Positions 28,650 through 64,000 are shown, counted from the first letter of the stretch. The stretch is 64,000 nucleotides of DNA from Caulobacteraceae bacterium (GCA_965283675.1 CBDIPQ010000005.1:91196-155195); one strand, 5' to 3'. The notes: a model not told the origin generated them from the letters alone. Made by a program: numbers and translations.

Positions 28650-29615
28650 TCAGCCGACCAGCGCTTGCCGGTCGCGTTCCAGAAAGGCGACGATGTCGGC
28701 CGGCGTCGCTCTCGGCGTGCGGGTGTGCGGATAGGCGTGCGCGGTGCGCGGCTTCCGGTCGAACCACAGTTCATCGACCACCTCCGACGGACGGGTCGCG
28801 GCCAGCCAGTCGATGGTGTCGGCGCCCTCGTCGTCGTTGCGCAGGATCGGAGCCAGGATCTTGCGGAATTTGGGCAGGGAGGTCTTCACCCCCGCCGTGT
28901 CGGCCCAGCCCGGATGGACCGCGTAGGTCCTGGCCCCAATGTCGGCGAAGGCCGCGCGCCAGTGCTCGGTCAGCGCCACCTGGGCCCGCTTGTGGGCCGC
29001 GTAGGCGGCGAAGCCGTTGAACTTCTCTTCCGGGATGTTCAGCATCGATTTGGTCAGCGGCAGATTGTAGAGGCCGCCCGAGACCACATTGATGATCGCC
29101 GCTTCCGAGGCCAACAGGCCCTCGGCGTGCATCTGTTCCGTCAGGATGTAGTGACCCAGCAGATTGGTCGCGTAGGAGGTCTCCACCCCCTCGGCCGTCG
29201 CCTGGTAGGACCGCATCAGCAGGCCGACATTGTTGACCAGAACGTCGAACTTCAGGGCGGCGATCTCCGGCCGGCGGGCCAGGTCGGACACCGCCCGCAT
29301 GGATGACAGGTCGCAGACGACCGGAACGATCCGTCCGGACGCCCCCGCCGCCGCGGCCTGAAGCGCATCCAGCGCGGCGACATTGCGCCCGACCGCGTAC
29401 ACCGTGGCCCCTTTGCGCACGGCGCGCAGCGCCGCCGCCCGCCCCAGCCCGCCGGTCGCGCCGGTGACCAGCCAGGTCTGTCCGGAATAGTCCGCGCGAA
29501 CCGGCTTGAACGGCAGGCCGCGGGCGATGTAGCCGACGCGGGTGAATGACGGCGCGAAGCGTGCGTAGAAATTCACAGACTTCATAAGGGCTTGCAGGAA
29601 GGGCAGCTCAGCCAT
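28650..29615 (-). CDS. SDR-family oxidoreductase (DHRS12-like)
   Basis: TGATGGLG, NNVG, YAAHK, VHPGWADT motifs. Confidence 0.9.
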   Translation of the reverse strand: MAELPFLQALMKSVNFYARFAPSFTRVGYIARGLPFKPVRADYSGQTWLVTGATGGLGRAAALRAVRKGATVYAVGRNVAALDALQAAAAGASGRIVPVVCDLSSMRAVSDLARRPEIAALKFDVLVNNVGLLMRSYQATAEGVETSYATNLLGHYILTEQMHAEGLLASEAAIINVVSGGLYNLPLTKSMLNIPEEKFNGFAAYAAHKRAQVALTEHWRAAFADIGARTYAVHPGWADTAGVKTSLPKFRKILAPILRNDDEGADTIDWLAATRPSEVVDELWFDRKPRTAHAYPHTRTPRATPADIVAFLERDRQALVG

Positions 29616-29641
29616 CGGATATCCTCCAAAGCGCGTACGTC

Positions 29642-29663
29642 GTCGCTTTCGTAAACATACTAA
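29642..29663 (+). promoter_or_regulatory. Cluster-wide operator motif copy
   Basis: GTCGCTTTC GTAAAC ATACTAA in the divergent intergenic region. Confidence 0.7.
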
Positions 29664-29713
29664 TCAAGCGGGACGGCTTGGCAACCGGCTTGCGTTTCTG
29701 GACTGATGGCGTA

Positions 29714-29735
29714 TCGGTTCGGAATCGCAAGTCAC
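29714..29735 (-). promoter_or_regulatory. Cluster-wide operator motif copy (weaker)
   Basis: GTGACTTGC GATTCC GAACCGA, 15 bp before ATG 29750. Confidence 0.45.
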
Positions 29736-29749
29736 AGGATCCGCTTCGA

Positions 29750-30772
29750 ATGACCAGACCGATCCGCGTGATCCAGTGGGCGACCGGCTCCATGGGGCGG
29801 GCCTGCCTGCGCGCCGTGATCGACGATCCGCGCTTCGAACTGGTCGGTCTGTTCGTCTATGGAGCGGCCAAGGCCGGGCGGGACGCCGGGGACATCGCGC
29901 GGCGCGATCCGACCGGGGTGATCGCCACCCGCGCCATCGAGGACATCCTGGCGCTGGACGCCGACGTGGTGCTGCACTGCCCGATGTTGCCGGATCCCTA
30001 TGACGGGCATGACGCCGACGTCCGGCGTCTGCTGGAGGCAGGCAAGAACGTCATCTCGATCAACAACTACTTCGAGCCCGCCGCGCTCGGCGCCGACTAT
30101 GCGGCGACCCTGTCGCAGAGCGCGCTGAAGGGCGGCGCGACCCTGGCCGGGACGGGGGTGAATCCCGGCTGGGTGGCGGAGCGGATGGCGGCCAACGCCG
30201 TCAGCCTGTGCCTGTCCCACCGCAACGTCGCGACCCGCGAAATCATTGACTGCGCGACGGTTCCCAACCCCGACTATGTCTTCGGCGCGCTCGGCTTCGG
30301 GGCGGATCCGGCGTCGATCGACCTGGTGGACGGCCCGCTGGCGCGAACCTTCGACCGCATGTTCGCCCAGAGTGTCGAGGGGCTGGCGCAACGCATCGGT
30401 CTGAAGCTGGACGGCTATGAGTCCGACCACGAACTGCGCACCGCCGAGCTCGACCTCATCGTCGCGGCGGGCATCATCCCTCGGGGCACGGTGGCGGCGA
30501 CGACCTGGCGGGTGCACGGCCTCGCCGACGGCGTCCGCCGCATCACCCACGAGGTCAACTGGATCATGGACCCGGCCGACCCGGCCTTCGCCGGCAAGCC
30601 GCACTGGAGGATCGAGGTCGACGGCCTGCCCGGGCTGAAGATCGCCATGGACCTGGTCGACACCGCGCCGGCGGGCGTGCGCACCAAGCCTGAGCAGTTC
30701 GCGGTCGCCGGCATGGTCCTGGACGCCATCCCGCGCGTGGTCGCGGCGCCGCCGGGCCTCCTTCGCCTCTGA
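29750..30772 (+). CDS. DapB-like NAD(P)H-dependent oxidoreductase (amine dehydrogenase / diaminopentanoate dehydrogenase-like)
   Basis: RVIQWATGSMG Rossmann motif, GRDAGD, GTGVNPGW. Confidence 0.8.
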   Translation: MTRPIRVIQWATGSMGRACLRAVIDDPRFELVGLFVYGAAKAGRDAGDIARRDPTGVIATRAIEDILALDADVVLHCPMLPDPYDGHDADVRRLLEAGKNVISINNYFEPAALGADYAATLSQSALKGGATLAGTGVNPGWVAERMAANAVSLCLSHRNVATREIIDCATVPNPDYVFGALGFGADPASIDLVDGPLARTFDRMFAQSVEGLAQRIGLKLDGYESDHELRTAELDLIVAAGIIPRGTVAATTWRVHGLADGVRRITHEVNWIMDPADPAFAGKPHWRIEVDGLPGLKIAMDLVDTAPAGVRTKPEQFAVAGMVLDAIPRVVAAPPGLLRL

Positions 30773-30848: not shown

Positions 30849-31379
30849 ATGGCCGACCGTGATCCCGAGGTGCAGGCGCTTCTCGACAAGAAGGCGATCG
30901 AGGAGACCCTGCTGCTGTTCCTGCGCGGCTGCGACCGCGCCGATGCGGACCTGGTCGAGCGCGCCTACTGGCCCGACGGTTGGGAGGACCACGGCGGCAC
31001 CTTCAACGGCCCGGCGTCCGAATGGGTCGCCGTCGTCAAGGAGCGCCTGCCCAAGGCCGGGCTGATGAACCACCTGGCCATGAACCTGGTCATCGAGCTG
31101 AAGAGCCCGACCACGGCGACGGCCGAATGCTACATCCTCACCGCCTCGCGCCTGAAGGTGAAAGGGGAGCTGTTCGACACCCGCACCCTGGCCCGCTGCG
31201 TGGACCAGATGGAGAAGCGTGGGAACGAATGGCGGATCCTGCGCCGCACCATGTGCTGGGAGTGGAACGAGGAACACGAGATCTCGGAGACCTGGGCGCG
31301 CGGGGCTATCACCAACGATCCGACCCAGCTGCGCCGCGGCGCCAAGAAGCCCGACGACATCATCTACACCGCCGCCTGA
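30849..31379 (+). CDS. NTF2-like / SnoaL-like protein (BaiE/LinA-like dehydratase fold)
   Basis: GAGG RBS; RGCDRAD...YWPDG..DHG, HLAMNLVIE, EWRILRR motifs. Confidence 0.85.
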   Translation: MADRDPEVQALLDKKAIEETLLLFLRGCDRADADLVERAYWPDGWEDHGGTFNGPASEWVAVVKERLPKAGLMNHLAMNLVIELKSPTTATAECYILTASRLKVKGELFDTRTLARCVDQMEKRGNEWRILRRTMCWEWNEEHEISETWARGAITNDPTQLRRGAKKPDDIIYTAA

Positions 31380-31388: not shown

Positions 31389-32147
31389 ATGGAAGTCCAG
31401 GGCTGTGTCGCCATCGTCACCGGCGCCAATCGCGGGATCGGCGAGGCCTTCGTCCGCGTGCTGATGCAGGAAGGGGCGGCCAGGGTCTACGCTGGCGCCC
31501 GCGATCCCGCCTCGGCGAAACATCTCGAGGATGAGTTTCCCGATCGCGTCGTGGCCGTGCGCCTCGACGTGTCGAAGCCGGAGCAGATCACGGCCGCGGC
31601 GGCCGCCTGTCCCGACGTCTCGGTCGTGGTCAACAACGCCGGCGCCTTCGACAACCAGCTGCTGATCGGCGCCGACGACCTGTCGGCCGCGCGCGAGGAG
31701 ATGGAGGTCAACTATTTCGGCCCCGTCGCCATGGCCCGCGCCTTCGCGCCCATCCTGAAGGCCAACGGCGGCGGCGCCATCCTGAACGTCCTCTCGGTCG
31801 GCGGCATCCTCGCCGCGCCGAACATGGGGGGCTACAGCCCGTCCAAATTCGCCATGCGCGCCGCCGGGACGTGCATCCGCGCCGAGCTGGCCGGGCAGGG
31901 CACGACCGTCACCTCGCTGATCGTCGGCTCGGTCGACACGCGCATGGCCGCGCATGTGAAGGGGGCCAAGGAGGCGCCTGAGGACGTCGCCCGGGCCGCC
32001 ATGCGCGGCATCACCCGGGGCACGGACGAGATCGACACAGACCGCTTCGCCATCGAGATGCGCGCCGCCAAGGCGCGCGATCCCAAGGGGTTGGAGCGGC
32101 AGATGGCCAAGGCCGTCTTCGTCAAGGAACCGTCGACCGGCCGCTAG
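31389..32147 (+). CDS. SDR-family oxidoreductase
   Basis: TGANRGIG, NNAG, YSPSK. Confidence 0.92.
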   Translation: MEVQGCVAIVTGANRGIGEAFVRVLMQEGAARVYAGARDPASAKHLEDEFPDRVVAVRLDVSKPEQITAAAAACPDVSVVVNNAGAFDNQLLIGADDLSAAREEMEVNYFGPVAMARAFAPILKANGGGAILNVLSVGGILAAPNMGGYSPSKFAMRAAGTCIRAELAGQGTTVTSLIVGSVDTRMAAHVKGAKEAPEDVARAAMRGITRGTDEIDTDRFAIEMRAAKARDPKGLERQMAKAVFVKEPSTGR

Positions 32148-32176: not shown

Positions 32177-33004
32177 ATGCCTGCTGTTCAGGAGATCGCC
32201 ACGATCCTGGGGATCAACCTCGGGATCTGTATCGCGTCCTTCGTCATCCTCTGGGCCATCGGCTGCGCGCTGAAGGACGTCACCTTCGTCGACGCCTGGT
32301 GGGCGCTGGGCCTGGCCTTCATGGCGGTGACCACCTTCTTCCAGGCCGACGGCGCCGATGCGCGGATGCAGCTCCTGCTCGCGCTCGCCTGCGTCTGGGG
32401 CCTGCGCTTGGGCCTCTACATCCTGTGGCGCTGGCGCTCCCACGGACCCGACCGCCGCTACGTGAAGATGCTCAGCCGCGCGCAGGAGACCAAGGGCTGG
32501 AGCTTCCCCGTCGCCTCCTGGCGGCTGGTCTTCATGTTCCAGGCCCCGATCCTGTGGGTGGTCAGCATGCCGGTCCAGCTGGGCCAGCTGTCGGCCACGC
32601 CCGCGGCCATCGGCACGCTGGGCTGGATCGGCGCCGGCCTGGTCGTCTTCGGCATCCTGTTCGAGAGCCTGGCCGACTTCCAGCTGGTCCGCTTCAAGGC
32701 GAACAAGGCCAATGAGGGCAAGGTGCTGGACGCCGGCCTGTGGCGCTACACCCGCCATCCCAACTACTTCGGAGACCTGTGCGTCTGGTTCGGCCTTTGG
32801 GCCATCGCGGCGGAGACCGGCCTGATCGGCGTCGCCTCCATTGTCGGGCCGCTGCTTCTGCTGCTGATGTTCGTGAAATACAGCGGCGGGCCGTCCTACG
32901 AGAAGCGGCTGACCTATCAGCGCCCCGGCTATGCCGAGTATATCGCCCGCACAAGTTCCCTCATCCCCTGGCCGCCGAAGAAGGCCGCTCCGGAGGTCGT
33001 GTGA
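32177..33004 (+). CDS. DUF1295 / steroid 5-alpha-reductase-like membrane protein
   Basis: VDAWWALG, DRRY, ADFQL..FK, GLWRYTRHPNYFGD. Confidence 0.9.
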   Translation: MPAVQEIATILGINLGICIASFVILWAIGCALKDVTFVDAWWALGLAFMAVTTFFQADGADARMQLLLALACVWGLRLGLYILWRWRSHGPDRRYVKMLSRAQETKGWSFPVASWRLVFMFQAPILWVVSMPVQLGQLSATPAAIGTLGWIGAGLVVFGILFESLADFQLVRFKANKANEGKVLDAGLWRYTRHPNYFGDLCVWFGLWAIAAETGLIGVASIVGPLLLLLMFVKYSGGPSYEKRLTYQRPGYAEYIARTSSLIPWPPKKAAPEVV

Positions 33005-34497
33005 AGCGCCCGTCCACCCCACGCGTCATGTCCACCCCCGGGATCGGCGAGATGTCGCCCCGGGGCATGGGCGCCCTTCTGGACATCCATGCGGCCCGCG
33101 ATCCGGACCGCCCGGCCCTGTCCTTCGAAGGCGAGACCCTGACCCGCGCCGCGCTGGCGTCGCGGGTCAATCGCCGCGCCCGGACCCTGGCGCGGCTGGG
33201 CGTGGAGGCGGGAGACTTCGTCGCCATCGCCCTGCCCAACACCCCGGCCTTCCTCGAACTGGCCTTCGCCGTCTGGGCCCTGGGCGCGCGCCCGCGCCCC
33301 TGTCGCACAAGCTGCCGGCGGCGGAGCTGGAGGGCGTCCTCGACCTGCTCAAGCCCCGGCTTGTGGTGATCAACGACGCGGCCAAGGCCGGCGGCTGGCC
33401 CGCCTTCGCGGAGGCGGACACCTTCGATGCGGCGGCCGATGACAGCCCCCTGCCGGAGAAGATCGCCCCGCACCTGAAGGCCATCGCCTCGGGCGGCAGC
33501 ACGGGCCGGCCCAAGGTCATCGTCGACATGTCGCCGGGCGTCGCCGATCCGGACAAGCCCCTGCTGGGCATGCTGCCGGACGACGACGTGCTGATGATCC
33601 CGGCCGCTGTACCACGCGGCCCCCTTCGGCATGACCTGCTTCGCCCTGGGCTGGGGCCTGCACGTGGTGCTGATGCCGCGCTTCGACGCCGAGGAAGCCC
33701 TGCGCCTGATCGAGCGCTACAGGGTGCGCTGGCTGTTCCAGGTGCCGACCATGATGCACCGCATCTGGGCCCTGCCGGAGGCGGTGAAGGCCCGCTACGA
33801 CATCTCGTCCTTGGACGCCGTCATGCACATCGCCGCGCCGTGTCCGCCGTGGCTCAAGCAGGCCTGGATCGACTGGGTCGGCCCCGAGACGGTGTGGGAG
33901 CTCTACACCGGCACCGAGGCCATGGGCGGCACCGGCATCAACGGCCTGCAGTGGCTTGAGAAGCCCGGCTCGGTCGGCCGGGTCCTGCCCGGCTACGAGA
34001 TGCAGGTGCTGCGTCCGGACGGCTCGGCCTGCGACGTGGACGAGGTCGGCGAGATATTCTTCCGGCCGCTGCGAGGGCAGGGGACCACCTATCGCTACCT
34101 GGGCGCCGAGCCCAAGGCGGTGGGCGAGTTCGAGACCCTGGGCGACATGGGCCGGCTGGACGCCGACGGCTATCTCTTCCTCGCCGACCGGCGCGTGGAC
34201 ATGATCCTGTCGGGCGGCGCCAACGTCTATCCGGCCGAGGTCGAGGCGGCGATCGACGCCTTCCCCGGCGTCCAGTGCAGCGTGGTCATCGGCCTGCCGG
34301 ACAACGACCTGGGCCAGCGCGTCCACGCCATCGTTGAGACGGCGGACGGGCGGCTGGACGCCGCGGCGCTGACCGCCTTCCTCGCCGAGCGCATCGCCCG
34401 CTACAAACAGCCGCGCACCTTCGAGGCCACCGCTGAACGGCTGCGCGACGACGCCGGCAAGGTGCGTCGGGGCCAGCTTCGGGCGGAGCGGATCTGA
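33001..34497 (+). CDS. Acyl-CoA synthetase (bile-acid-CoA-ligase-like subfamily); frameshifts at about 33288 and 33600
   Basis: Three ORF pieces give SGGSTGRPK, PGPLYHAAPF, LYTGTE, TLGDMG, ILSGGANVYPAEVE. Confidence 0.85.
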
Positions 34498-34500
34498 CGT

Positions 34501-34620
34501 TTCTCCCTCCCTCTTGTGGGGAGGGATGTCGGCGCGCAGCGACGACAGGGTGGGGGCTGTGCGGCTGCTCCCCACCCGTCTCGCTTCGCGAGCCACCCTC
34601 CCCACAAGGGGGAGGGAGAA
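34501..34620. repeat. 120-bp palindromic intergenic element (Caulobacter CIR/REP-like) between convergent genes
   Basis: 25-bp terminal inverted repeat TTCTCCCTCCCTCTTGTGGGGAGGG / CCCTCCCCACAAGGGGGAGGGAGAA (1 mismatch) plus inner GGGTGGGG / CCCCACCC pair. Confidence 0.8.
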
Positions 34621-34621
34621 C

Positions 34622-34996
34622 TCACCCCGTCGCGGCCGGGTCCTTCATCTGGAAATAGTCGCGCCAGGCGGTGATCTTCCCGTCCGGCCCGAACTCGATG
34701 ATGCCCATATAGGGGTGGGACACCTTCACGCCGTCGGCGTTGACGTAGTCCTCGCGGCCCTCGGTCAGGACCTGGGTTTCGTTCTGCGCCCAACTGGACA
34801 GGACCCACTCGGTTTCGGAGTGGTTGGCCCAGTACCGGGTGATGAATTTGTCGACCCATTCCACCCCGATCAGGGGGCGGGTGCCGACGTGATAGTGGTA
34901 CTCGATCGCGGGGTCGAAGAAGGTCAGGAACGCCGCCTTGTCGCGACGCCCCGAGACCTCCATCAGCGCCCGCAGGCGCTCGATCGGCGTGCTCAC
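34622..34996 (-). CDS. NTF2-like protein, limonene-1,2-epoxide-hydrolase-like
   Basis: IEYHYH, VLTEGREDY, ITAWRDYF; GTGA overlap with upstream paralogue. Confidence 0.82.
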   Translation of the reverse strand: MSTPIERLRALMEVSGRRDKAAFLTFFDPAIEYHYHVGTRPLIGVEWVDKFITRYWANHSETEWVLSSWAQNETQVLTEGREDYVNADGVKVSHPYMGIIEFGPDGKITAWRDYFQMKDPAATG

Positions 34997-35394
34997 GCCG
35001 AGGCCTTGGCGGCGTCCGGCTTGGCCGGGGCGTGCACCTGCGAGGTGTCATAATAGTCCCGCATGCGGCGGATCAGGCCGTCGCGGACCTCGAAGACCTG
35101 GACGAAAGGATTGTCCATCTTCACCCCGGTCGAGCGGTCAACGAGGACTTCCATCCCTTCCACGAACAGCACCTCTCCGGCCTCGGCCGAGTGCACGATC
35201 CGCCATTCCTGCTGGTCGAAGCCCTGTTCGTAGTTGGCCAGGAATTTGCGCATCTTGTCCTTGCCGATGGCGGGACGTTTGGTGGGGTGCCAGTGGTACT
35301 CGATGTCGTCGGACAGGGTGGCGATGAAGCCCTCCACGTCGCGCTTCTTCCACGCGGCCATCATGGCCTCGACCACCTTCATATGCTCGCCCAT
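34993..35394 (-). CDS. NTF2-like protein, limonene-1,2-epoxide-hydrolase-like
   Basis: GGGAG RBS before ATG 35394; IEYHWH, LFVEGMEVL, FEVRDGLIRRMRDYYD. Confidence 0.82.
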   Translation of the reverse strand: MGEHMKVVEAMMAAWKKRDVEGFIATLSDDIEYHWHPTKRPAIGKDKMRKFLANYEQGFDQQEWRIVHSAEAGEVLFVEGMEVLVDRSTGVKMDNPFVQVFEVRDGLIRRMRDYYDTSQVHAPAKPDAAKASA

Positions 35395-35436: not shown

Positions 35437-35458
35437 TAAGTTTGTTTATGCAAGTGAC
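35437..35458 (-). promoter_or_regulatory. Cluster-wide operator motif copy overlapping a candidate -35
   Basis: GTCACTTGC ATAAAC AAACTTA; contains TTGCAT, followed 17 bp later by TAGCGT (35430-35425) pointing at the NTF2 pair. Confidence 0.72.
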
Positions 35459-39489: not shown

Positions 39490-39492
39490 CAA

Positions 39493-39514
39493 TCAATCTA
39501 AAGATGAAAGTGAC
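39493..39514 (-). promoter_or_regulatory. Cluster-wide operator motif copy
   Basis: GTCACTTTC ATCTTT AGATTGA immediately before the MFS start. Confidence 0.68.
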
Positions 39515-39772
39515 TTGCCGATCCGATCCCGGCGCGCGGGTGGATTTCGGCAAGGGATTTCGCGGTCCGCGGAAACGGGCCGGGCTGTTCGCTGTGACGT
39601 GTGACCGATGTCTCCACGGGTCCGTCTCAACTCCCTGTTATACCGCCGGTTTTCCGGTCTGGTTGGTGTCGTTGGGGCCGCGGATTTCCGTTCTTCCAAA
39701 CGGGTCTGCGGGCCCTGTGACAGCCTTAACCCAATCAAGCACAGATGTTGGTCTGATTACAAAAGCTATTTG

Positions 39773-56203: not shown

Positions 56204-57673
56204 TCAGGCGGCGACTTGTGCGCCGGGCGCCCAGGTCCCGTGGAAGCCGGCGGGCACGCGGGCGGGCAAGGGAATGCGGGCGATAGGGCCGGCCTCGAAA
56301 TCCTTGGCCGCGATGACCTGGACCTCGGAGGCGCCCGTGGCCTCGTCGGTGGTGAAGACGATGACGTAGCCGTCGTCTTCGTCGACCGCGCCGACGCGGG
56401 GGGCGAAGGCGGGCTCCGAGCCGCCGACGCCGGGCGCGAAGTCATGCGTCTTCGCCGCGCCGGTGTTGAGGTCGTACTTGATCAGGCCCGAGAAGCGCTG
56501 CAGTTCCTGCTTCGCCATCGAGACATGGTAGGACCAGTTCGTCTTGCGGCCGGTGTAGTCGAGGTTGACCACCGGGAACTCGCCGATGCGGTCGTCCAGC
56601 CGGCGCTTCTTCACCTCGCCCGTGACCATGTTCATGCGCCACTCGACCGGCACGGCGTTCAGCGCCAGCACATTGACCATCGAGGCGTAGGGGCCATAGG
56701 CCGGGTTCGGCGGATAGCCGTTCGGCGTCATCATGCAGGCGGTCATGACGACCTCGTCGCCGTCCTCCCAGGCGTTGACGACGTGGTAGATGTAGCAGGT
56801 CTCGGTTTCGAACCAGCGGACCTGATCGCCCTTGCCGTTCTTGGGGACGACGCCGAAGCGGGCGGGCTGGTCGGCCACCTTGATCTGCCACATCGAGTTG
56901 CGCAGTCCGGCCTCGGTGAAGACCACCGGGAGGTCGTGCAGGATGATGTAGTTCTCGGTCAGGCCCATGTCGTGCGGCAGGCGCGGTCCGGGCAGGTCGA
57001 CCTTCTGGAAATTGGTCAGGTTGTTCTGGGCATCGACCACGCCGAAGGTCATCCACGGCTCGTAGAGCGAATAGTCGAAGAAGCAGAACTCGCCGGTCTT
57101 GGGATCGACCTTGCCGTGGGCCGAGACGTGGCGGGGCAGGGCGCCGCCGAAGGTCTCGTTGCCGATCGTCTCCAGGGTGTTGGCGTGGACCCGCACCGGC
57201 TTGCCCGAGATGTACCAGAGCGCCATCAGCGAGCCGTTGTGGAAGACCAGATCGGTGTTGGCCGTGTCCTTGTAGACGAGGTCGCCGCGCTGCGACCCCG
57301 GACGGGTCCGCGCCGAGGGGGCCATGACCCCGCCCGCGTGGATGTCGAGCCCGGCCTTTTCGGCGCGGTAGTCGTCGGTTCCGACATAGCGGTTGCGGTA
57401 TTCGGCCTTGCCGTTCTCGAACCAGATGGCGTGGACCATGCCGTCGCCGTCGAACCAGTGATGCAGGCCCGCCGGCGCCTGGGCCGGGTTGGGACCATTG
57501 CGCACGAAGGCGCCGTACAGGTCTTTGGGAATCTCGCCGATGACGGGCAGGTCCAGCGCCGTCGTCTCGGTCGCCACAGGCTCGTAGAGGCCCTGCAGAT
57601 AGGGGTTCAACTGGTTCAGCGGGGTGAGTTCACCGGTCTCGATCCGGCGCGCCGCGGTCGCGTCATCGGCCAT
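56204..57673 (-). CDS. Carotenoid-cleavage-oxygenase (RPE65/CCO) family dioxygenase 2
   Basis: RNGPNP, HWFDGDGM, YRNRYV; His motifs SAHGK, PHDM, IYHV, GFHGTW. Confidence 0.93.
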   Translation of the reverse strand: MADDATAARRIETGELTPLNQLNPYLQGLYEPVATETTALDLPVIGEIPKDLYGAFVRNGPNPAQAPAGLHHWFDGDGMVHAIWFENGKAEYRNRYVGTDDYRAEKAGLDIHAGGVMAPSARTRPGSQRGDLVYKDTANTDLVFHNGSLMALWYISGKPVRVHANTLETIGNETFGGALPRHVSAHGKVDPKTGEFCFFDYSLYEPWMTFGVVDAQNNLTNFQKVDLPGPRLPHDMGLTENYIILHDLPVVFTEAGLRNSMWQIKVADQPARFGVVPKNGKGDQVRWFETETCYIYHVVNAWEDGDEVVMTACMMTPNGYPPNPAYGPYASMVNVLALNAVPVEWRMNMVTGEVKKRRLDDRIGEFPVVNLDYTGRKTNWSYHVSMAKQELQRFSGLIKYDLNTGAAKTHDFAPGVGGSEPAFAPRVGAVDEDDGYVIVFTTDEATGASEVQVIAAKDFEAGPIARIPLPARVPAGFHGTWAPGAQVAA

Positions 57674-57712: not shown

Positions 57713-57734
57713 CCGGTCCGTTTGTGCAAGTCAT
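57713..57734 (-). promoter_or_regulatory. Cluster-wide operator motif copy
   Basis: ATGACTTGC ACAAAC GGACCGG, 40 bp upstream of dioxygenase 2. Confidence 0.62.
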
Positions 57735-58645
57735 GATAGGCGCACGGCGGTCGCCGGACGGGCCTTCAGGAAGGCCTCGAAGGCGGCGTTTCCGTCGGTC
57801 GGCAGGGTCCAGTCCTCGAGCGACATCAGCGGGCCCATGGCCGCGGTCAGGTCGTCAGGAGAGACTTCGCCCGGCGGATCGAACTGGACGCCGGGACCCT
57901 CGATCCGGACGGCGCGGCGGACCTTGCCGGCGCCCGCCACCAGGGTCTCGCCGTTCAGCGGGCAGGCCGCGGTCATCAGCCAGCTGACCACCGGGGCGAC
58001 GTATTCGGGCGGCATGGCCTGGCCGACCTCGTCGGTGACATAGGCCTCGGTCATGCCGGTCAGGGCGTAGGGGGCGACGGCGTTGGCGTGCACGCCCCTG
58101 GAGGCGCCTTCCAGGGCGATGACCCGCATCAGGCCGATCAGCGCCGCCTTGGACGAGGAATAGGCGGCCATGCCGTGCACCCCGTGCAGGCCGGCCGCGG
58201 AGGTGGTGATGGCGATCCGCCCCGCGCCCTGGTCGCGCATGTGGCGGTAGATCGGCAGGGTGGCGCTGACCGTGCCGAAGAAGTTGATGTCGAAGACGGC
58301 CCGCAGCTCGGCCAGGGTCTGTTTGTGCAGGCTTCTGGCTTCGGGAGCGCCGGCGTTGTTCACCAGCCCGTCGATGCGGCCGAAGGCGGCGAGGGCGGCC
58401 TCCAGCAGGCGGTCTCCGGCGTCATCCTGTTCGACCCCGAGCGCGCAGGCGACGGCTTCGCCGCCGGCGGCCCGGATTCGCTCGACCACGGCCTCGGCCG
58501 AGGCCGGCTGGCCCGACGGGCGGGGCCGGGTGTTGACCACCACCTTCGCCCCGCGGGACGCCAGATCCAGCGCATAGGCCAGGCCCAGGCCGCGCCCGGC
58601 GCCCGTGACCACGATGACCCGGTCCTTCAACGACCGCTGTTCCAT
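57731..58645 (-). CDS. SDR-family oxidoreductase (MFE-2 3-hydroxyacyl-CoA-dehydrogenase-like)
   Basis: TGAGRGLG, NNAG, GLHG...YSSSK; GGAGGG RBS favours start 58645. Confidence 0.9.
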   Translation of the reverse strand: MEQRSLKDRVIVVTGAGRGLGLAYALDLASRGAKVVVNTRPRPSGQPASAEAVVERIRAAGGEAVACALGVEQDDAGDRLLEAALAAFGRIDGLVNNAGAPEARSLHKQTLAELRAVFDINFFGTVSATLPIYRHMRDQGAGRIAITTSAAGLHGVHGMAAYSSSKAALIGLMRVIALEGASRGVHANAVAPYALTGMTEAYVTDEVGQAMPPEYVAPVVSWLMTAACPLNGETLVAGAGKVRRAVRIEGPGVQFDPPGEVSPDDLTAAMGPLMSLEDWTLPTDGNAAFEAFLKARPATAVRLS

Positions 58646-58654
58646 CCGCCCCTC

Positions 58655-58676
58655 CATGCTTGCGTAAAAAGACTTG
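58655..58676 (+). promoter_or_regulatory. Cluster-wide operator motif copy
   Basis: CATGCTTGC GTAAAA AGACTTG in the divergent SDR/receptor gap. Confidence 0.55.
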
Positions 58677-58681
58677 CAAAC

Positions 58682-58703
58682 TTGGTCCGTTGGCGCAAGT
58701 TAC
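58682..58703 (-). promoter_or_regulatory. Cluster-wide operator motif copy
   Basis: GTAACTTGC GCCAAC GGACCAA, inverted relative to the copy at 58655. Confidence 0.65.
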
Positions 58704-58759: not shown

Positions 58760-60958
58760 ATGAAGTTCGTTCACGCCACAACCGCCTCCGTCGCCGCCCT
58801 GATGCTGGGGGCCGCGCTCGCCGCGCCCGCCGCCGCGCAGGAGGCGCCGCCGCAGGACGCCGCCACCCTCGACGAGGTGATCGTCACGGCGCAGCGCCGC
58901 GAGCAGAGCCTGCAGGACGTGCCGATCGCCATCACCGCCTTCAACGCCGAGACGCTGGAGCGCACGGCGGCGACAGGCATCCAGGACATCGCGGCCAAGG
59001 CGCCGGGCGTGACCCTGACCCAGTTCAACATCGGCGAGCCGCAGCTCTACATCCGCGGCGTCGGGTCCTCGAGCAACTCGGCGGCCAGCGATCCCTCGAT
59101 CGGCGTCTCCATCGACGAGGTGTCGATCGGCCGGTCGGGCGCCAGCGCCCTGGCCTTCCTCGACATCGAACGGGTCGAGGTCCTGCGCGGGCCGCAGGGG
59201 ACGCTGTACGGCCGTAACGCCTCAGGCGGGGCGCTGAACATCTACACCCGCAAGCCGGTCTTCCAGAACACCGGCAGCCTGACGGCCCGGATCGGCAGCT
59301 TCGACGAGTACGGGCTCGAAGGGGTGGTGAACCGCCAGCTGGACGACGAGACCGCGATCCGCTTCGCCGCCCGCTACAACACCAACGACGGCTATGCCGA
59401 GAACGTCCCGACCGGCCGGGGGCTGGAGGGCGGAACGTCCTTGGGCGCGCGCGTGTCGGTGCTGAAGGAGGCGGGCGAATGGAGCCTCCTGCTGAGCGGC
59501 GACTATTCGAAGGACGACATGGACGGGCACGCCCGCATCCCGGTCACGACCTCGGCCACCGCGCCGGCCTTCGTCACCCTGATCAATACCCTGCGGACGG
59601 GCCTGGACCGGCGGCAGAGCTTCTCGTCGCCGGACAACTATCAGGACCGCACCAATTTCGGCGTGACGGCGCGGGTCGAGCATTCCGGCCAGGCGTTCGA
59701 CTTCGTCTCCCTGACCTCGTTCCGGGACAACGACTACAGCTGGCGGGACAATCTGGGCGGCCTGCCGTTCCCGGCCTTCCCGCTGGAGGTGGACGACCGG
59801 GCCTCGGAGAAGGCGCGCCAGTTCAGCCAGGAGTTCCGGCTGGCGTCCAAGCCGGGATCCGACATCAACTGGGTCGCCGGCGCCTATGTGTTCCAGGAAG
59901 ACATCCTGCGGAGCGAGCGCTTCATCGTGAACACGGCGCTGCCCATCGCGCCGCCGTCGTTCGGCGGCGACACCACCTTCATCCAGGATGCGACCAACCG
60001 CAGCTTCGCCGTCTTCGGCCAGGCCAACATCCCGTTCGCGGACATCTGGGAGCTGACGCTGGGCGCCCGGTGGACGCATGACAAGCGCGAGATCCACCAG
60101 ATCGCGATCGACAACGAGGGCGGCGCCAATCCGCCTCCGGGCATTCCGCTGGGGCCGGGCGGCGCGCCCTACAACGTCAGCGGCGACGAGAGCTTCAGCG
60201 AGCCGAGCTGGAAGATCGCCCTGGCGGTCGAGCCGGTCGACAACGTGCGCCTCTACGCCAGCTATGACCGGGGCTACAAGGCGGGGGCCTTCCCGTCGAC
60301 GGCCCAGTCCGGCGCCCAGGCGCTGACGCCGCTCGCGTCGGAACTGCTCGACAACTACGAGATCGGGGTGAAGTCGACCCTGATGGGCCGGCTGCGCTTC
60401 AACGCGGCGGCGTTCAAGCTCGAGTACACCGACCTGCAGGTCTATGAGCTGCTGGGACTGGCGCTGGTCACCTCCAACGCCCAGGCCGAGGTGGACGGGT
60501 TCGAGATCGAGACCGCCCTGGCGATCACCAACAACCTGACCATCGGCGGCTCGTACACCAGCCTGGATGCGAAGTTCACGTCGAACGCCGCATCGGGCGC
60601 GCTGGTCCTGCCCTACAACGGCAACACCCTGCCGCGGTCGCCGGACAGCCAGTACACCCTGTACATCGACAGCGAATGGGACGTGGCCGGCGGCGTGCTG
60701 GCGGCGCGGGCCGACTATCAGTGGACCGACGCCTTCTACTTCGATCCGTCGAACAACCCCGAGGTCCTGTCGCCGGAGCACGAGCTGGTCAGCGCCTTCC
60801 TGTCGTGGGAGTCGCCGTCGGGCCTGAAGATCTCGGCCTACGGCAAGAACCTGACGGACACCGAGTACCAGACCCACATCATCAAGAACGTGGGCGTGGG
60901 CTTCAGCGTCTTCGGGGCGCCGCGCTCTTTCGGCGTGGCCCTGAGCCAAAGCTTCTAG
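58760..60958 (+). CDS. TonB-dependent receptor
   Basis: GGGGAGG RBS, signal peptide, DEVIVTAQRRE, ERVEVLRGPQGTLYGRN, terminal F. Confidence 0.95.
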   Translation: MKFVHATTASVAALMLGAALAAPAAAQEAPPQDAATLDEVIVTAQRREQSLQDVPIAITAFNAETLERTAATGIQDIAAKAPGVTLTQFNIGEPQLYIRGVGSSSNSAASDPSIGVSIDEVSIGRSGASALAFLDIERVEVLRGPQGTLYGRNASGGALNIYTRKPVFQNTGSLTARIGSFDEYGLEGVVNRQLDDETAIRFAARYNTNDGYAENVPTGRGLEGGTSLGARVSVLKEAGEWSLLLSGDYSKDDMDGHARIPVTTSATAPAFVTLINTLRTGLDRRQSFSSPDNYQDRTNFGVTARVEHSGQAFDFVSLTSFRDNDYSWRDNLGGLPFPAFPLEVDDRASEKARQFSQEFRLASKPGSDINWVAGAYVFQEDILRSERFIVNTALPIAPPSFGGDTTFIQDATNRSFAVFGQANIPFADIWELTLGARWTHDKREIHQIAIDNEGGANPPPGIPLGPGGAPYNVSGDESFSEPSWKIALAVEPVDNVRLYASYDRGYKAGAFPSTAQSGAQALTPLASELLDNYEIGVKSTLMGRLRFNAAAFKLEYTDLQVYELLGLALVTSNAQAEVDGFEIETALAITNNLTIGGSYTSLDAKFTSNAASGALVLPYNGNTLPRSPDSQYTLYIDSEWDVAGGVLAARADYQWTDAFYFDPSNNPEVLSPEHELVSAFLSWESPSGLKISAYGKNLTDTEYQTHIIKNVGVGFSVFGAPRSFGVALSQSF

Positions 60959-61920
60959 GGAAGAGGCTGGGCGGCGTCGGGAGTTCCCGGCGCCGCCTCG
61001 ACTTCCCAGCGGATGTTGCGCGGGTCCAGCAGGCGGCCCGTCGCCAGGTCGCAGACGACCGGATGGATCGCCTCGCCGGTGCGGGTGTCGACCAGTTTCA
61101 GCGGCGGCCCGTCGGGGCAGAGCCAGCGCTCGCTCCAGCCGTGCATGGCCATGATCATCGGGAACAGGTCCAGGCCGGCCTGGGTCAGCCGGTATTCGAA
61201 GCGCGGCGGCGCCTTCTGGTAGAGCTTCTTCTCAAGCACCCCGTGCAGGACCATGCGGTTCAAGCGGTCGGCCAGGATGTTGGTGGCGACGCCCAGCGCC
61301 TCGTGGATTTCGTCGAACCGGCGCATGCGGAAGAAGGCGGCGGCCAGCACCGCCCAGCTCCAGTAATCGCCCATGATGTCGGTCGAGCGGTCGATGATCG
61401 CCCGGTCCGTCTCCATCGGCTGGGTCCGGCGCCGGCGCGACGTCGGGGGCGCGATCGGGACCAGCCCCTCGCCCACCTCACCGCGGACGAAGTGCGGATC
61501 GACCGGCTGACCGCCTTCATGATTGAAGATGGCCGGGGTCACCGGCTCGCCGGTGTGGCGGTCGTAGAAGGCGAGGGCGTAGCGCTCCTGCAGGGGCGAG
61601 CGCGCCCACTTCCGCTCCCACTGGCCCTGCATGACGGCGGTGCCGAACATGTCGAGCCCCATTTCCGTCAGCCGGTACTCCAGGCGCGTCGGCAACTCCT
61701 TCGCCGGGCGCTGCTCGAACAGGCCGGCGGCGACGAGGCGGTTGAGCCGGTCGGTCAGGACGCTGCGCGGCATGCCGAGCCGGTCGCGCCACTGCGAGAA
61801 CCGCCGCGCGCCGTAGAAGGCCTCGCGCAGGATCAGTTGCGTCCAGGCGTCGCCCGTCACCGCGAACGCGCGGGCGACGGGGTTCCCCATGATCAGATCG
61901 CGTGTGGAAATCTGGTCCAC
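60955..61920 (-). CDS. Transcriptional regulator with two tandem HxlR-type wHTH domains
   Basis: GDAWT...RRFSQW...LEYRLTEMG and GDYWS...RRFDEI...FEYRLTQAG units; GAGGG RBS before GTG 61920. Confidence 0.9.
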   Translation of the reverse strand: MDQISTRDLIMGNPVARAFAVTGDAWTQLILREAFYGARRFSQWRDRLGMPRSVLTDRLNRLVAAGLFEQRPAKELPTRLEYRLTEMGLDMFGTAVMQGQWERKWARSPLQERYALAFYDRHTGEPVTPAIFNHEGGQPVDPHFVRGEVGEGLVPIAPPTSRRRRTQPMETDRAIIDRSTDIMGDYWSWAVLAAAFFRMRRFDEIHEALGVATNILADRLNRMVLHGVLEKKLYQKAPPRFEYRLTQAGLDLFPMIMAMHGWSERWLCPDGPPLKLVDTRTGEAIHPVVCDLATGRLLDPRNIRWEVEAAPGTPDAAQPLP

Positions 61921-62010
61921 GAGCCCTCGTTTCAATCCTGCTTCGGACCCTGTCTAGCACTCCGGACACTAAATCGCAGGTCCGGTGACGCAAGGGCGTG
62001 ATCAGGGCGA

Positions 62011-62032
62011 TAAATCCTGTTTTGCAAGTCAG
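62011..62032 (-). promoter_or_regulatory. Cluster-wide operator motif copy
   Basis: CTGACTTGC AAAACA GGATTTA in the divergent regulator/ligase gap. Confidence 0.62.
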
Positions 62033-62089
62033 TCCGGACCGCTAGGATGAAGGCCGATCCGGAATACCGGACGTGTATGGGAGAGTGGC

Positions 62090-63898
62090 GTGCTGGATCT
62101 GGTCGAAGACTTCCATCGGGCGCCGTGCCGGCCCATCCGCTTCGGCGACGTGGGGCTGGAGATCGAGCGCCGGGACGACGGAACCCTGATCCTGTCGGCC
62201 CGCGCGCCGCTGGCGCCGTATGAGCGGAATCTGCTGCGCCGGTTCTGGTCGCACGGCGAGACGCAGGCGCAGAAGACCTGGATCGCCGAGCGGGACGGCG
62301 AGGGCTGGCGGCGGCTCTCCTACGGCCAGGCGCGAACCGACGTTTCGGCCGTGGCGACCTGGCTGAAGGCGCAGGGCGTTGCGCCTGGCCGCTCGATCCT
62401 GGTCCTGTCCGGCAACACCCTGGCCCATGCCTTGTGGATGTTCGGGGCCATGGCCGCGGGCGTGCCGATCTGTTCGGTCAGCACCAACTATTCCCTGCTG
62501 AGCGCCGACTTCGAGCGGCTGCGGCATGTGGTCGATCTGGTGAAGCCGGCGGTGATCTTCGCCGAGACCGCCGACTATGCGCGCGCCGCCGAGGCCATCG
62601 CGCCGGACGATGCGATCATCGTCACCGGCGCCCCCGACGCCTTCGCGGGCGAAGCGGTCGATATGGCCGAGGTGCTGTGGGCGCCGGACGTGGCGGGCGT
62701 CGGCCGGGCCGTCGAGGCGCTGGATCCGACGGCGCCCGCCCGCTACCTGCTGACCTCCGGCTCGACCGGGCGGCCCAAGGCGGTGATCCACACCCAGGCC
62801 ATGATGACCGGCAATACGGCCAGCGGGGCGCAGGCCATGGGCGACGCCTTCGACTGGGGCGGGGTCATGCTGGACTGGCTGCCGTGGAGCCACATCGCCG
62901 GCTCGTCCCTGCTGACCAACATCACCTGGCTGGGCGGGACGCTGCACATCGACGACGGCCGTCCGACGCCGGCGCAGTTCGCGGCGACGCTGAGGAACCT
63001 GCGCGAGGTCCCGGTGCGCTTCTACGGCACCATGCCTTCGGGCTACGCCATGCTGGCCGATGCGCTGGAGGCGGACGAGGCGCTGCGCCGGACCTTCTTC
63101 AGCGAGCTGAGGGTCATGCTGTTCGGCGGGGCGGGGCTGCCCCAGCCCCTGCACGACCGGCTGCAGCGGCTGGCGGTCGCCACGACGGGGCAGCGGTTCA
63201 TGTTCGTGTCCGGCTACGGCTCGACCGAGACCGGCTCCGCGATCAGCTACACCTGGTGGGAGAGCACCCGCGTCGGCATCGGCCTGCCGGTGCCGGGGGC
63301 GTCGCTGAAGCTGGTGCCGGCCGACGGCGCCTATGAGGTGCGGGTCAAGGCGCCCAGCGTGACGCCCGGCTATTTCGGCGACGACGACCGGACGCGCGAG
63401 GTCTTCGACGAGGACGGCTTCCTGCGCATGGACGACATGGCCGACTTCCACGACCGGGACGACCCCGAGCTGGGCCTGTTCTTCGCCGGGCGGCGGGTGG
63501 AGCAGTTCAAGCTGGCCAACGGCACCTTCGTGGCGGCGGGCCGGCTGCGCGGTGATCTGCTGGAGGCCCTGCCGGGCGTGTTCCGTGACGTGGTGATCTG
63601 CGGCGAGGGGCAGACGGCGTTGAAGGTCCTGGCCTGGGCCGATCCGGAGGGCGTGCGCCGGCTGGGAGATGCCGCCGCCGTGCGCGCCGCCGTGGCCGAG
63701 GGCCTGCGCCGCTACAATGCGACCCACACCGGCCAGAGCGAGCGGCTGGCCGGCCTGCTGTTCCTCGACACGCCGCCGGACGTGGAAGGCCACGAGGTCT
63801 CGGACAAGGGGTCGATCAATCGCAACATGGTCCTGCGCAACCGCGCCGGGGATGTGGCGCGGCTGTATGCCGACGATGCTGAGGTGATCGTTCCCTAA
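62090..63898 (+). CDS. Feruloyl-CoA-synthase-like acyl-CoA synthetase
   Basis: LTSGSTGRPK, DWLPWSH, GYGSTET, KAPSVTPGY, FKLANGTFV, EVSDKGSINR. Confidence 0.88.
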   Translation: MLDLVEDFHRAPCRPIRFGDVGLEIERRDDGTLILSARAPLAPYERNLLRRFWSHGETQAQKTWIAERDGEGWRRLSYGQARTDVSAVATWLKAQGVAPGRSILVLSGNTLAHALWMFGAMAAGVPICSVSTNYSLLSADFERLRHVVDLVKPAVIFAETADYARAAEAIAPDDAIIVTGAPDAFAGEAVDMAEVLWAPDVAGVGRAVEALDPTAPARYLLTSGSTGRPKAVIHTQAMMTGNTASGAQAMGDAFDWGGVMLDWLPWSHIAGSSLLTNITWLGGTLHIDDGRPTPAQFAATLRNLREVPVRFYGTMPSGYAMLADALEADEALRRTFFSELRVMLFGGAGLPQPLHDRLQRLAVATTGQRFMFVSGYGSTETGSAISYTWWESTRVGIGLPVPGASLKLVPADGAYEVRVKAPSVTPGYFGDDDRTREVFDEDGFLRMDDMADFHDRDDPELGLFFAGRRVEQFKLANGTFVAAGRLRGDLLEALPGVFRDVVICGEGQTALKVLAWADPEGVRRLGDAAAVRAAVAEGLRRYNATHTGQSERLAGLLFLDTPPDVEGHEVSDKGSINRNMVLRNRAGDVARLYADDAEVIVP

Positions 63899-64000
63899 CG
63901 CGCGCGTTGCGCCTGTTCCCACGCCAGCCGCGCCAGTTCGGGGAACTCGTCCGCGCGCTTGCGGGCCTTGGGCGAGACGGCGTTGCCGCGTATCACCCGG
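63895..64000 (-). CDS. 3' end of a convergent gene, possibly a phosphotransferase-family protein
   Basis: Reads RVIRGNAVSPKARKRADEFPELARLAWEQAQRAR-stop; its stop overlaps the ligase stop. Confidence 0.4.
   Translation of the reverse strand, partial: RVIRGNAVSPKARKRADEFPELARLAWEQAQRAR

Follow-up and report, generated by a model that had tools for sequence, protein, structure and literature searches.

Gene content of the locus

The DNA analysed here (the window) is a 64,000-nucleotide (nt) stretch from a Caulobacteraceae bacterium (GCA_965283675.1, CBDIPQ010000005.1:91196-155195), the right-hand part of which (28650-63898) holds a block of 28 genes (g01-g28) that includes two carotenoid-cleavage-type oxygenases (CCO1 and CCO2). 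Because the window DNA is high in GC (~68%), genes were called from a frame plot of third-position GC (GC3), and domains were assigned by Pfam and NCBIfam scans. Comparisons were made against 189 related loci (L-numbered), with a subset of 40 diverse CCO loci, and against 87 distant full-length loci. Positions below are counted from the first letter of the window.

28650-29615, minus strand, g01: short-chain dehydrogenase/reductase (SDR) oxidoreductase, divergent from g02 (Pfam adh_short, E 8e-25; 87% identical orthologue, collinear in L164)
29750-30772, plus strand, g02: DapB_N/2,4-diaminopentanoate-dehydrogenase-like NAD(P) oxidoreductase (Pfam DapB_N, weak; NCBIfam Ord-like, 81 bits, below cut-off; PDB 7xdu, E 1.5e-13; start from the L164 orthologue)
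30849-31379, plus strand, g03: NTF2-like SnoaL_4 protein (Pfam SnoaL_4, E 1.6e-18)
31389-32147, plus strand, g04: SDR oxidoreductase (Pfam adh_short, E 1e-33; NF006118, 319 bits, above cut-off)
32177-33004, plus strand, g05: DUF1295 protein (Pfam DUF1295, E 1e-64; weak Steroid_dh)
~33001-34497, plus strand, g06: acyl-coenzyme A (CoA) ligase, frameshifted here (Pfam AMP-binding, C-terminal half only)
34622-34996, minus strand, g07: NTF2-like SnoaL_2 protein resembling limonene epoxide hydrolase (LEH) (Pfam)
34993-35394, minus strand, g08: NTF2-like SnoaL_2/LEH-like protein (Pfam; PDB LEH, E 1e-6)
35511-36452, minus strand, g09: regulator with two HxlR winged-helix domains (Pfam HxlR, two stretches, E 1e-39)
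36484-38128, minus strand, g10: acyl-CoA ligase, frameshifted here (AMP-binding match split over two frames)
38107-39492, minus strand, g11: major facilitator superfamily (MFS) transporter (Pfam MFS_1, E 9e-49)
39846-42177, plus strand, g12/g13: TonB-dependent receptor (TBDR) 1, frameshifted here (barrel domain by Pfam in one frame; the N-terminal part, in another frame, matches the intact orthologue only and has no Pfam match)
42247-43434, minus strand, g14: acyl-CoA dehydrogenase (ACAD) (Pfam Acyl-CoA_dh N, M and C domains)
43570-45033, plus strand, g15: carotenoid-cleavage-type oxygenase CCO1 (Pfam RPE65, E 2e-121)
45046-46263, plus strand, g16: SCP2-type thiolase with full catalytic set (NF004936, 643 bits, above cut-off; PDB 4bi9)
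47493-47975, minus strand, g17: hotdog-fold (PaaI/4HBT-type) thioesterase (Pfam 4HBT; TIGR00369 above cut-off)
47972-48925, minus strand, g18: FMN-dependent FabK/NMO-like enoyl reductase (Pfam NMO; best PDB match FabK 5gvj, E 9e-26)
48922-50640, minus strand, g19: acyl-CoA ligase (Pfam AMP-binding, E 2e-61)
50637-52127, minus strand, g20: acyl-CoA ligase (Pfam; start from the L001 orthologue)
52124-53353, minus strand, g21: SCP2-thiolase-like protein (Pfam Thiolase_C_1; the ATG at 53353 overlaps the g22 stop)
53350-55044, minus strand, g22: PaaN_2-like NAD-dependent aldehyde dehydrogenase (ALDH) (TIGR02288, 549 bits; PDB 5uju, E 5e-136)
55047-56195, minus strand, g23: thiolase (Pfam Thiolase_N and Thiolase_C; TIGR01930 above subfamily cut-off)
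56204-57673, minus strand, g24: carotenoid-cleavage-type oxygenase CCO2 (Pfam RPE65, E 2e-125)
57731-58657, minus strand, g25: SDR (Pfam adh_short, E 1e-45)
58760-60958, plus strand, g26: TBDR2 (Pfam Plug and barrel; ATG at 58760)
60955-61935, minus strand, g27: second regulator with two HxlR domains (Pfam HxlR, two stretches, E 2e-36)
62090-63898, plus strand, g28: PRK12582-type acyl-CoA synthetase (Pfam AMP-binding; NF009232, 626 bits, below cut-off)

A preliminary description of this DNA had listed the enzymes and transporters of a catabolic system; each listed item was recovered within 28650-63898 in the Pfam and NCBIfam scans, together with four genes beyond that list: the two double-HxlR regulators, the FabK/NMO-like enoyl reductase and the DapB_N-type oxidoreductase. 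The same scans bear out its statement that Rieske oxygenase, ring-cleavage and paaABCDE genes are absent, with no such domain in any block gene. Genes g25-g17 form an apparent nine-gene operon on the minus strand, with g25 first, and the gene order at g25 is kept in L081, L084 and L100. The g28 type is linked to a CCO1-type module in L053, L066 and L190, and the cluster may extend past the right end of the window. Beyond the g28 orthologue, positions 1-3700 of L100 (Brevundimonas sp. DC300-4) encode a 319-residue protein, a FabH/KAS-III-like protein and a glyoxalase-like protein (translations judged by eye). An Rfam scan of the whole window gave no match.

Conservation and modular organisation

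The grouping of these genes is far beyond chance. The source of the DNA is a Brevundimonas. CCO1 is 82-93% identical to proteins in Brevundimonas genomes, the closest being that of Brevundimonas sp. CPCC 101690, and a look-up of the exact CCO1 sequence among public assemblies gave no record. Nucleotide homology with the CPCC 101690 genome starts at 28648, 2 bases from the left boundary given in the preliminary description, and is collinear to at least 55949. The order g01-g23 is kept in ~15 Brevundimonas genomes. A g16-g27 unit without CCO1 and the left-hand genes occurs in B. diminuta and B. bullata, with shortened versions in Terricaulis, Stappia and Methylocella; this right-hand unit consists of thiolase, thioesterase, FabK-like reductase, two ligases, thiolase-like protein, ALDH, thiolase, CCO2, SDR, receptor and HxlR2. 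Conversely, the CCO1 module occurs in Maricaulis and Kordiimonas with the g02-g05, g07/08, g11, g25 and g28 types.

More distant genomes carry the same parts in other arrangements. Nearly the whole parts list, with two adjacent CCOs and without g02 or the MFS transporter, is present in the gammaproteobacterium Elongatibacter sediminis. In sphingomonads, the genes NMO-CCO-ligase-SCP2 thiolase-thiolase-PaaN are packed into one operon, which adjoins a TBDR gene and an HxlR2 gene. Amycolatopsis and Nocardia have an HxlR2 gene next to CCO-ligase-thiolase, and Sporosarcina has NMO-CCO-ligase-thiolase. A minimal set of CCO, ligase, SCP2-thiolase and HxlR extends to the Actinobacteria, Chloroflexota and Bacillota. 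Among the 40 diverse CCO loci, the most frequent partners were the SCP2-type thiolase family (g16/g21; n = 27), NMO (n = 26) and the ligase (n = 26; the g19 type, which is the ligase that most often adjoins CCO genes), followed by g23 (n = 25), HxlR2 (n = 24) and PaaN (n = 17). The corresponding counts among the 87 distant full-length loci were 34 for the g16-type thiolase, 24 for NMO, 34 for the g19-type ligase, 29 for g23, 40 for HxlR2 and 20 for PaaN. Most of the extra families that emerged from the 40-locus subset were artefacts of antisense open reading frames (ORFs), the real ones being Lipocalin_5, a class-C beta-lactamase/esterase and an extra TBDR.

The objection that the genes might not be co-conserved, which the preliminary description had raised against itself, fails in view of the collinearity in ~15 Brevundimonas genomes and of the recurrence in other phyla. 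Two modules can be distinguished, each with its own TonB-dependent receptor, double-HxlR regulator and CCO, and the two occur together or apart in other genomes. The block combines both modules, with an enzymatic core that they share, and its gene content and conservation mark it as a real, co-conserved breakdown system.

Two of the additional families were observed in particular lineages (L048, L069, L072, L074, L080, L105-L107 and L125). A Lipocalin_5 protein lies beside the CCO core in the sphingomonad version and some others, and a class-C beta-lactamase/esterase lies beside it in sphingomonads and in one other alphaproteobacterial metagenome-assembled genome (L025). It is speculation that the esterase de-esterifies xanthophyll esters.

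Regulators and a shared promoter box

In each of the regulators g09 and g27, a single polypeptide carries a pair of HxlR winged-helix domains, a tandem form that is kept beside CCO genes from Proteobacteria to Actinobacteria. The 9-mer GCAAGTNAC has five matches in the 64 kb (0.79 expected; 0 of 100 shuffles reached five), all in promoter regions of the block and none elsewhere in the window: one upstream of g02, one in the g09/g08 interval, two between the MFS transporter and TBDR1, and one between g25 and TBDR2. The individual boxes and related sites are listed below.

29727-29735, plus strand: GCAAGTCAC box, 15 nt upstream of g02
35450-35458, plus strand: GCAAGTGAC box, between g09 and g08
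39510-39518, minus strand: GCAAGTCAC box, divergent region between the MFS transporter and TBDR1
39786-39794, plus strand: GCAAGTTAC box, upstream of TBDR1 (conserved in L001, L164 and L179)
58661-58703: operator-like block CTTGCGTAAAAAGACTTGCAAA..TGGTC.GTTGGCGCAAG, divergent region between g25 and TBDR2, running into the GCAAGTTAC box at 58695-58703
62022-62029, plus strand: TTGCAAGT box, between g27 and g28 (conserved in L100)

The ~40-nt block between g25 and TBDR2 contains three half-sites and is identical in L081 and L100 despite ~75-85% coding identity. Related sites, TTGCAAGT, occur in the g25/TBDR2 and g27/g28 regions, and a common GCAAGT box is present in most promoter regions of both modules. 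We infer that the shared box is a candidate operator of the HxlR-type regulators; the block is apparently co-regulated.

The distribution of the box also bears on whether the block is one system at all. A chance juxtaposition of unrelated lipid-metabolism genes could be argued from the separate occurrence of the modules and from signs of a region in flux (an insertion sequence, a 1.2-kb insertion and frameshifts), but the collinearity in ~15 genomes, the recurrence of the parts list in a gammaproteobacterium and the confinement of the shared promoter box to the block make this explanation highly improbable.

The two carotenoid-cleavage-type oxygenases

Both oxygenases match the RPE65 profile (PF03055, 469 positions) over its full length (CCO1, positions 2-468; CCO2, positions 2-469), and the four iron-binding histidines are kept in both when aligned with the plant carotenoid 9,10-dioxygenase CCD1 (9m6z), in the motifs AHPK/AHGK, PHDM, LH/YH..NAWE and THA/FHG. 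CCD1 is also the closest solved structure for both proteins (CCO1 with 9m6z, E 3e-65; CCO2, E 6e-79), outranking the lignostilbene dioxygenases (LSDs), NOV1 and the cyanobacterial apocarotenoid oxygenase among their PDB matches. The top NCBIfam model for each is the 8'-apo-carotenoid 13,14-cleaving dioxygenase (NACOX1 type, NF052295), on which CCO1 scores 238 bits and CCO2 scores 297, both far below the equivalog cut-off of 675, and neither protein attains the equivalog cut-off of any NCBIfam model. The LSD models come second, at 196-250 bits against cut-offs of 800 (NF053778) and 650 (NF053780).

One alternative reading is a lignin-derived stilbene or diarylpropane (beta-1, beta-5) cluster, or a resveratrol-type one, in which the CCOs would be LSDs and the NTF2-like proteins LdpA-like lyases. 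Alphaproteobacterial CCO-family enzymes in such a role are well characterised (PMC8191317; PMC9942872), NTF2-like genes and TonB receptors are present in the block, and the LSD models are the runners-up for both CCOs. LSDs hold the 4-hydroxyl group of their stilbene substrate through two catalytic residues, Tyr-101 and Lys-134 (PMC8191317). Aligned with the Pseudomonas brassicacearum enzyme, with residue spacing within one residue of the published numbering, the LSD tyrosine (VYRN) and lysine (LLALKED) are replaced by GLAEH and ILSTFYQ in CCO1 and by GGVMAP and LMALWYI in CCO2. Because both residues are replaced in both proteins, stilbene-type substrates are unlikely; the LSD model scores fall well below their cut-offs, the block holds no vanillate or aromatic ring-cleavage genes, and ligases and thiolases, which are superfluous for stilbene pathways, dominate the partners. 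The stilbene interpretation was rejected on the active-site residues, leaving it with a very slight probability, and stilbenes, which stood on the substrate list of the preliminary description, and 4-hydroxyphenyl alkenes are accordingly disfavoured.

A carotenoid-type polyene is the best guess for the CCO substrate. Family resemblance and gene context together suggest a carotenoid or terpenoid compound.

Thiolases, aldehyde dehydrogenase and other processing enzymes

SCPx/SCP2 thiolases process 2-methyl-branched 3-oxoacyl-CoA, and the C14 dialdehyde from 9,10/9',10' cleavage of a carotenoid, once oxidised and CoA-activated, would have methyl groups at its alpha positions. The motifs of SCP2-type thiolases comprise a nucleophilic cysteine, a cysteine-containing HDCF and the histidine of GHP (PMC12329534). 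All of these are present in g16 (CASG-87, HDCF-304 and GHP-353; HDCF in 72/74 orthologues), a bona fide SCP2-type thiolase; neither of the other two thiolase-family proteins has a full catalytic set. In g21 the CASG cysteine is retained and HDAT replaces HDCF, as it does in 22/28 orthologues. The nucleophilic cysteine (CVSG) and GHP are kept in g23, with MEAFA for NEAF(A), AAGAQGVG and no C-terminal CxGGG cysteine; most of its orthologues share these deviations, which set it apart from canonical CT/AB-type thiolases.

Retro-aldolases of the Sal/Ltp2 type carry YDCx or YDHF with a catalytic tyrosine and have no nucleophilic cysteine (PMC12329534). Such a role was considered for the atypical thiolases g21 and g23 and rejected, as the YDCx motif is absent and the nucleophilic cysteine is kept. 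With HDCF in g16 and HDAT in g21, the CASG cysteine in both and no DUF35 partner, the two SCP2-type proteins do not fit the retro-aldolase pattern either. A retro-aldolase role would have accounted for the many ligases in the block and is not claimed.

The ALDH g22 scores 549 bits on the PaaN_2 model TIGR02288, just short of its cut-off of 578.75, and no paa oxygenase genes occur in the block. The known substrates of PaaN and PaaZ are CoA-bound semialdehydes. With 110 bits on the FabK model TIGR03151 (equivalog cut-off 453), g18 can be placed in the NMO/FabK fold family only. The ligases g19 and g20 have weak NCBIfam matches to steroid-24-oyl-CoA synthetase. For the DUF1295 family, a membrane ene-reductase, UsgR, has been described as similar to DUF1295 and to the C-terminal domain of steroid 5-alpha reductase (PMC8597850).

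For g07 and g08, the closest PDB relative is LEH. Catalysis by LEH involves an Asp101-Arg99-Asp132 triad plus Tyr53 and Asn55; Y53 and D132 are kept in both proteins, and R99 is changed to G and D101 to E in both, with N55 changed to Y in g07 and to W in g08. A role as epoxide hydrolases for 5,6-epoxy-carotenoid end groups was rejected on the missing Arg99 and Asn55 and is not claimed.

Comparison with known systems

Full-text literature searches gave no characterised pathway mapping onto the block, in keeping with the preliminary description, which had not recognised it as a described cluster; no paper was found on this gene combination or on a bacterial carotenoid catabolic cluster, the broader matches being plant, engineering and lignin papers. 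In a review of microbial CCOs, the bacterial members are discussed as catalysts studied in isolation, with no catabolic operon or physiological pathway reported for them (PMC5133782). The block CCOs share the fold and the four-histidine iron site of CCD1 and of the bacterial carotenoid oxygenases with biochemical tests behind them, NACOX1 (Novosphingobium aromaticivorans), SaCCO (Sphingopyxis alaskensis) and MtCCO Rv0654, but are only moderately identical to CCD1/NACOX1-type enzymes (238-297 bits against the 675 cut-off).

The sphingomonad lignostilbene pathways (LsdA/LSD4/NOV1 and the NTF2-like lyase LdpA) resemble the block in their entry through a CCO-family enzyme, their occurrence in Alphaproteobacteria, their NTF2-like proteins and TonB receptors, and aldehyde oxidation, whereas the block lacks Tyr-101/Lys-134 and an aromatic pathway and has CoA ligases, thiolases and ene-reductases as partners. 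The catabolism of steroid and bile-acid side chains and of rings C/D uses the same enzyme families on methyl-branched, partly cyclic isoprenoid CoA esters (SCP2/Ltp thiolases and aldolases, CasG/FadD3-type ligases, ketosteroid isomerase and 5-alpha-reductase-type enzymes), sharing with the block the SCP2-type thiolase and the weak steroid-24-oyl-CoA synthetase matches of g19 and g20. Steroid catabolism also has an NMO-family enoyl-CoA reductase, IpdC, comparable to the g18 type. It differs in that the block has no equivalents of KshAB, KstD, HsaC or IpdAB, no DUF35 or MaoC partners and no YDCx aldolase motif in its thiolase-like proteins, and in that entry would be by alkene cleavage rather than ring hydroxylation. 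Likeness to the phenylacetate PaaN/PaaZ system extends to the 549 bits of g22 and to the PaaI-type hotdog thioesterase g17, but g22 remains below the cut-off and there is no paaABCDE, paaG or paaJ context. The Pseudomonas Atu/Liu pathway for acyclic terpenes has the same goal, the breakdown of methyl-branched isoprenoid acids as CoA esters, but relies on geranyl-CoA carboxylase and HMG-CoA-lyase-type genes that the block lacks. The block combines the CCO entry of the lignostilbene pathways, the SCP2 thiolase, ligases, NMO-type reductase and paired NTF2-like and ene-reductase proteins of steroid/isoprenoid degradation, and the PaaN-like ALDH and PaaI-like thioesterase of the phenylacetate system. 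It belongs to none of these systems, and it is predicted to be a CCO-initiated, CoA-dependent catabolic regulon with no described equivalent in the literature searched.

Frameshifts, insertions and surroundings

Frameshifts were judged against five intact Brevundimonas orthologues. Two deletions interrupt g06, one of -1 at ~33291 and one of -2 at ~33604 (in tblastn, the alignment of the L164 orthologue, itself intact, runs through frames 1>3>1); in g10 there is a -2 deletion at ~37880 (intact 548-residue orthologue in L001/L164), and in TBDR1 -1 deletions at ~39899 and ~40439 (intact orthologue, 777 residues). Outside the cluster, an unrelated P-type ATPase gene is split (ORFs 6928-8505 and 7587-9431) with the break at the GAAAAATC A-run (~8235-8245), where one extra A restores the frame. 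Each of the seven frameshift events is a deletion, and the cluster is not the only place affected: one event lies at the A-run of the ATPase gene, and another in the ORF of the insertion at 46264-47493 (~47100). Pseudogenisation as their proven cause was rejected on these grounds, and we lean slightly towards assembly error rather than real decay.

Two insertions interrupt the block. Between g16 and g17 lies a 1.23-kb insertion (46264-47493) that is absent from all 189 related loci and contains one frameshifted minus-strand ORF of ~320 residues with no Pfam match. Between the convergent g06 and g07, where the spacer in L164 is 3 nt, there is a ~125-nt palindromic insert (34497-34621) with two inverted copies of the 25-nt unit TTCTCCCTCCCTCTTGTGGGGAGGG, each a hairpin, which looks like a repetitive extragenic palindromic (REP) or miniature inverted-repeat transposable element (MITE)-like element.

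To the left, an IS5-family insertion sequence (27133-27890; a DUF4096 ORF and a DDE_Tnp_1 ORF) lies just before the start of homology at 28648. Positions 1-27000 form a metal-resistance island with two OEP/HlyD/AcrB (Czc-like) RND efflux sets (28-5516, plus strand; 16112-21777, minus strand), CDF transporters (5513-6112 and 22335-23279), a CsoR-type metal repressor (23276-23584), the P-type ATPase, DUF305, HupE/UreJ and two Acyl_transf_3 genes. GC3 is lower at 22-28 kb.

Proposed pathway and alternative readings

With moderate confidence, we read the block as a single two-module regulon that imports and degrades a hydrophobic compound with a cleavable C=C bond, most probably a methyl-branched polyene of the carotenoid or apocarotenoid type, possibly with a cyclic end. 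Outer-membrane uptake of the substrate would fall to the receptors, and passage of substrate or product through the inner membrane to the MFS transporter. CCO1, CCO2 or both would use O2 to split an alkene bond, yielding aldehydes or ketones, and the PaaN-like g22 would oxidise the aldehyde end to a carboxylate, maybe on a CoA-bearing molecule. The ligases would form CoA thioesters, their number serving different fragments, both ends or re-activation after each cycle. Double bonds could be adjusted by the FabK-like g18, the ACAD g14 and g05 as a DUF1295 ene-reductase, with the SDR g25 as hydroxyacyl-CoA dehydrogenase. The SCP2-type g16 would suit 2-methyl-branched 3-ketoacyl-CoA and, with g21 and g23, would release acetyl-CoA and propionyl-CoA. 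The left-hand set (the SDRs, three NTF2-like proteins, DUF1295 and DapB-like proteins) may remodel a ring or a functionalised or oxygenated terminus, in parallel to hydroxysteroid dehydrogenase, ketosteroid isomerase and 5-alpha-reductase chemistry. For the hydration of enoyl-CoA, either housekeeping enzymes or a member of the set not recognised as a hydratase would have to serve.

Several findings weigh against this pathway. By Pfam, none of the called genes encodes an enoyl-CoA hydratase (crotonase or MaoC domain), and no hydratase family emerged from the comparison of 40 CCO loci, so that beta-oxidation is represented by an ACAD, SDRs and thiolases with no crotonase or MaoC protein. Both g21 and g23 lack the thiolase acid/base residue, and do so in conserved clades (orthologues L001-L160). 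Because g22 is nearest to PaaN, the order of aldehyde oxidation and CoA activation may differ from the one proposed. The LEH fold of g07 and g08 comes without the canonical catalytic set, TBDR1 and two ligases (g06 and g10) are frameshifted here, non-carotenoid alkenes are also cleaved by CCO-family enzymes, and the link between the block genes and the substrate is drawn from sequence. The preliminary description's "complete import-cleave-activate-shorten logic" was therefore an overstatement, given the missing hydratase and two of three thiolase-family proteins without the acid/base cysteine; what holds from it is the single co-conserved unit, which the shared promoter motif supports, and the lack of a counterpart in the literature searched.

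A further point of the same kind, the 27 of 87 distant CCO loci without any enzyme partner among those checked, also favours another explanation, namely that the genes serve the turnover of, or signalling by, the cell's own carotenoids (apocarotenoid making or clearing) with no external nutrient. Hosts of such loci do include carotenoid makers (Brevundimonas, sphingomonads, Nocardia and Sporosarcina). Against this, the modules retain two TonB-dependent receptors and an MFS transporter among their conserved genes, a complement of five ligases and three thiolases implies that carbon is harvested, and M. tuberculosis has putative CCO genes with no carotenogenic genes (PMC5133782); we consider turnover of endogenous carotenoids improbable.

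A regulon of the same CCO-initiated kind acting on a non-carotenoid alkene is a possible reading, and on the unlikely side. Candidate substrates would include another isoprenoid, such as abscisic acid (ABA) and related sesquiterpenoid acids or the side chains of quinones and tocopherols. A fatty acid, conjugated or oxidised, would also qualify, as would a pigment of the aryl-polyene type or an acid that is CoA-activated before the CCO cut. The nearest relatives of the ALDH, PaaN_2 proteins, have CoA-bound enal semialdehydes as known substrates, the minimal conserved combination of CCO, ligase and thiolase would fit a carboxylic-acid substrate, and neither CCO attains an NCBIfam equivalog cut-off. 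ABA breakdown by bacteria is known chemically, with no genes named in the papers found. Against this reading, both CCOs have carotenoid or apocarotenoid enzymes as their closest relatives, among solved structures and models alike, and the reported bacterial ABA metabolites (dehydrovomifoliol and a ring-acetic acid) would, by our reasoning, need no alkene cleavage. We also know of no CCO that acts on a CoA ester, which counts against pre-cleavage activation.

More tentatively, the carotenoid-type pathway can be extended beyond this genome: the block may be the form taken in Brevundimonas by a bacterial pathway, widespread across phyla, that assimilates polyenes derived from carotenoids and the core of which would be CCO, acyl-CoA ligase and SCP2-type thiolase under a double-HxlR regulator. 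In the block, this core would be extended by the PaaN-like ALDH, the FabK-like reductase, the atypical thiolases and the ring-processing set. In a bolder variant, a CCO would cut a polyenoic acid already activated with CoA, and the PaaN-like enzyme would oxidise the CoA-bound enal that results.

Significance

Carotenoids are among the most abundant lipids of plants, algae and bacteria, and to our knowledge no bacterial gene set for their breakdown is known. Work on bacterial CCOs has so far dealt with single enzymes or with lignin-stilbene pathways. If true, the widespread pathway would be the first genetic account of bacterial carotenoid mineralisation. The block offers a concrete candidate with defined operons, two receptors, two regulators and a candidate operator, and orthologous clusters are present in culturable Brevundimonas kwangchunensis, B. 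staleyi, B. diminuta, Phenylobacterium and Maricaulis. The cluster is intact in Brevundimonas sp. CPCC 101690, B. kwangchunensis JCM 12928 and B. staleyi CCUG 57884, whereas B. diminuta has the CCO2 module only. Rv0913c/Rv0914c of M. tuberculosis may, we presume, be a minimal-unit pair. New chemistry may reside in the thiolase-family proteins g21 and g23, which lack the acid/base cysteine. The source annotation of CCO homologues goes no further than "carotenoid oxygenase family protein", and CCO1 has >6,600 homologues at E<=1e-30; a function assigned to the block would therefore annotate thousands of genes.

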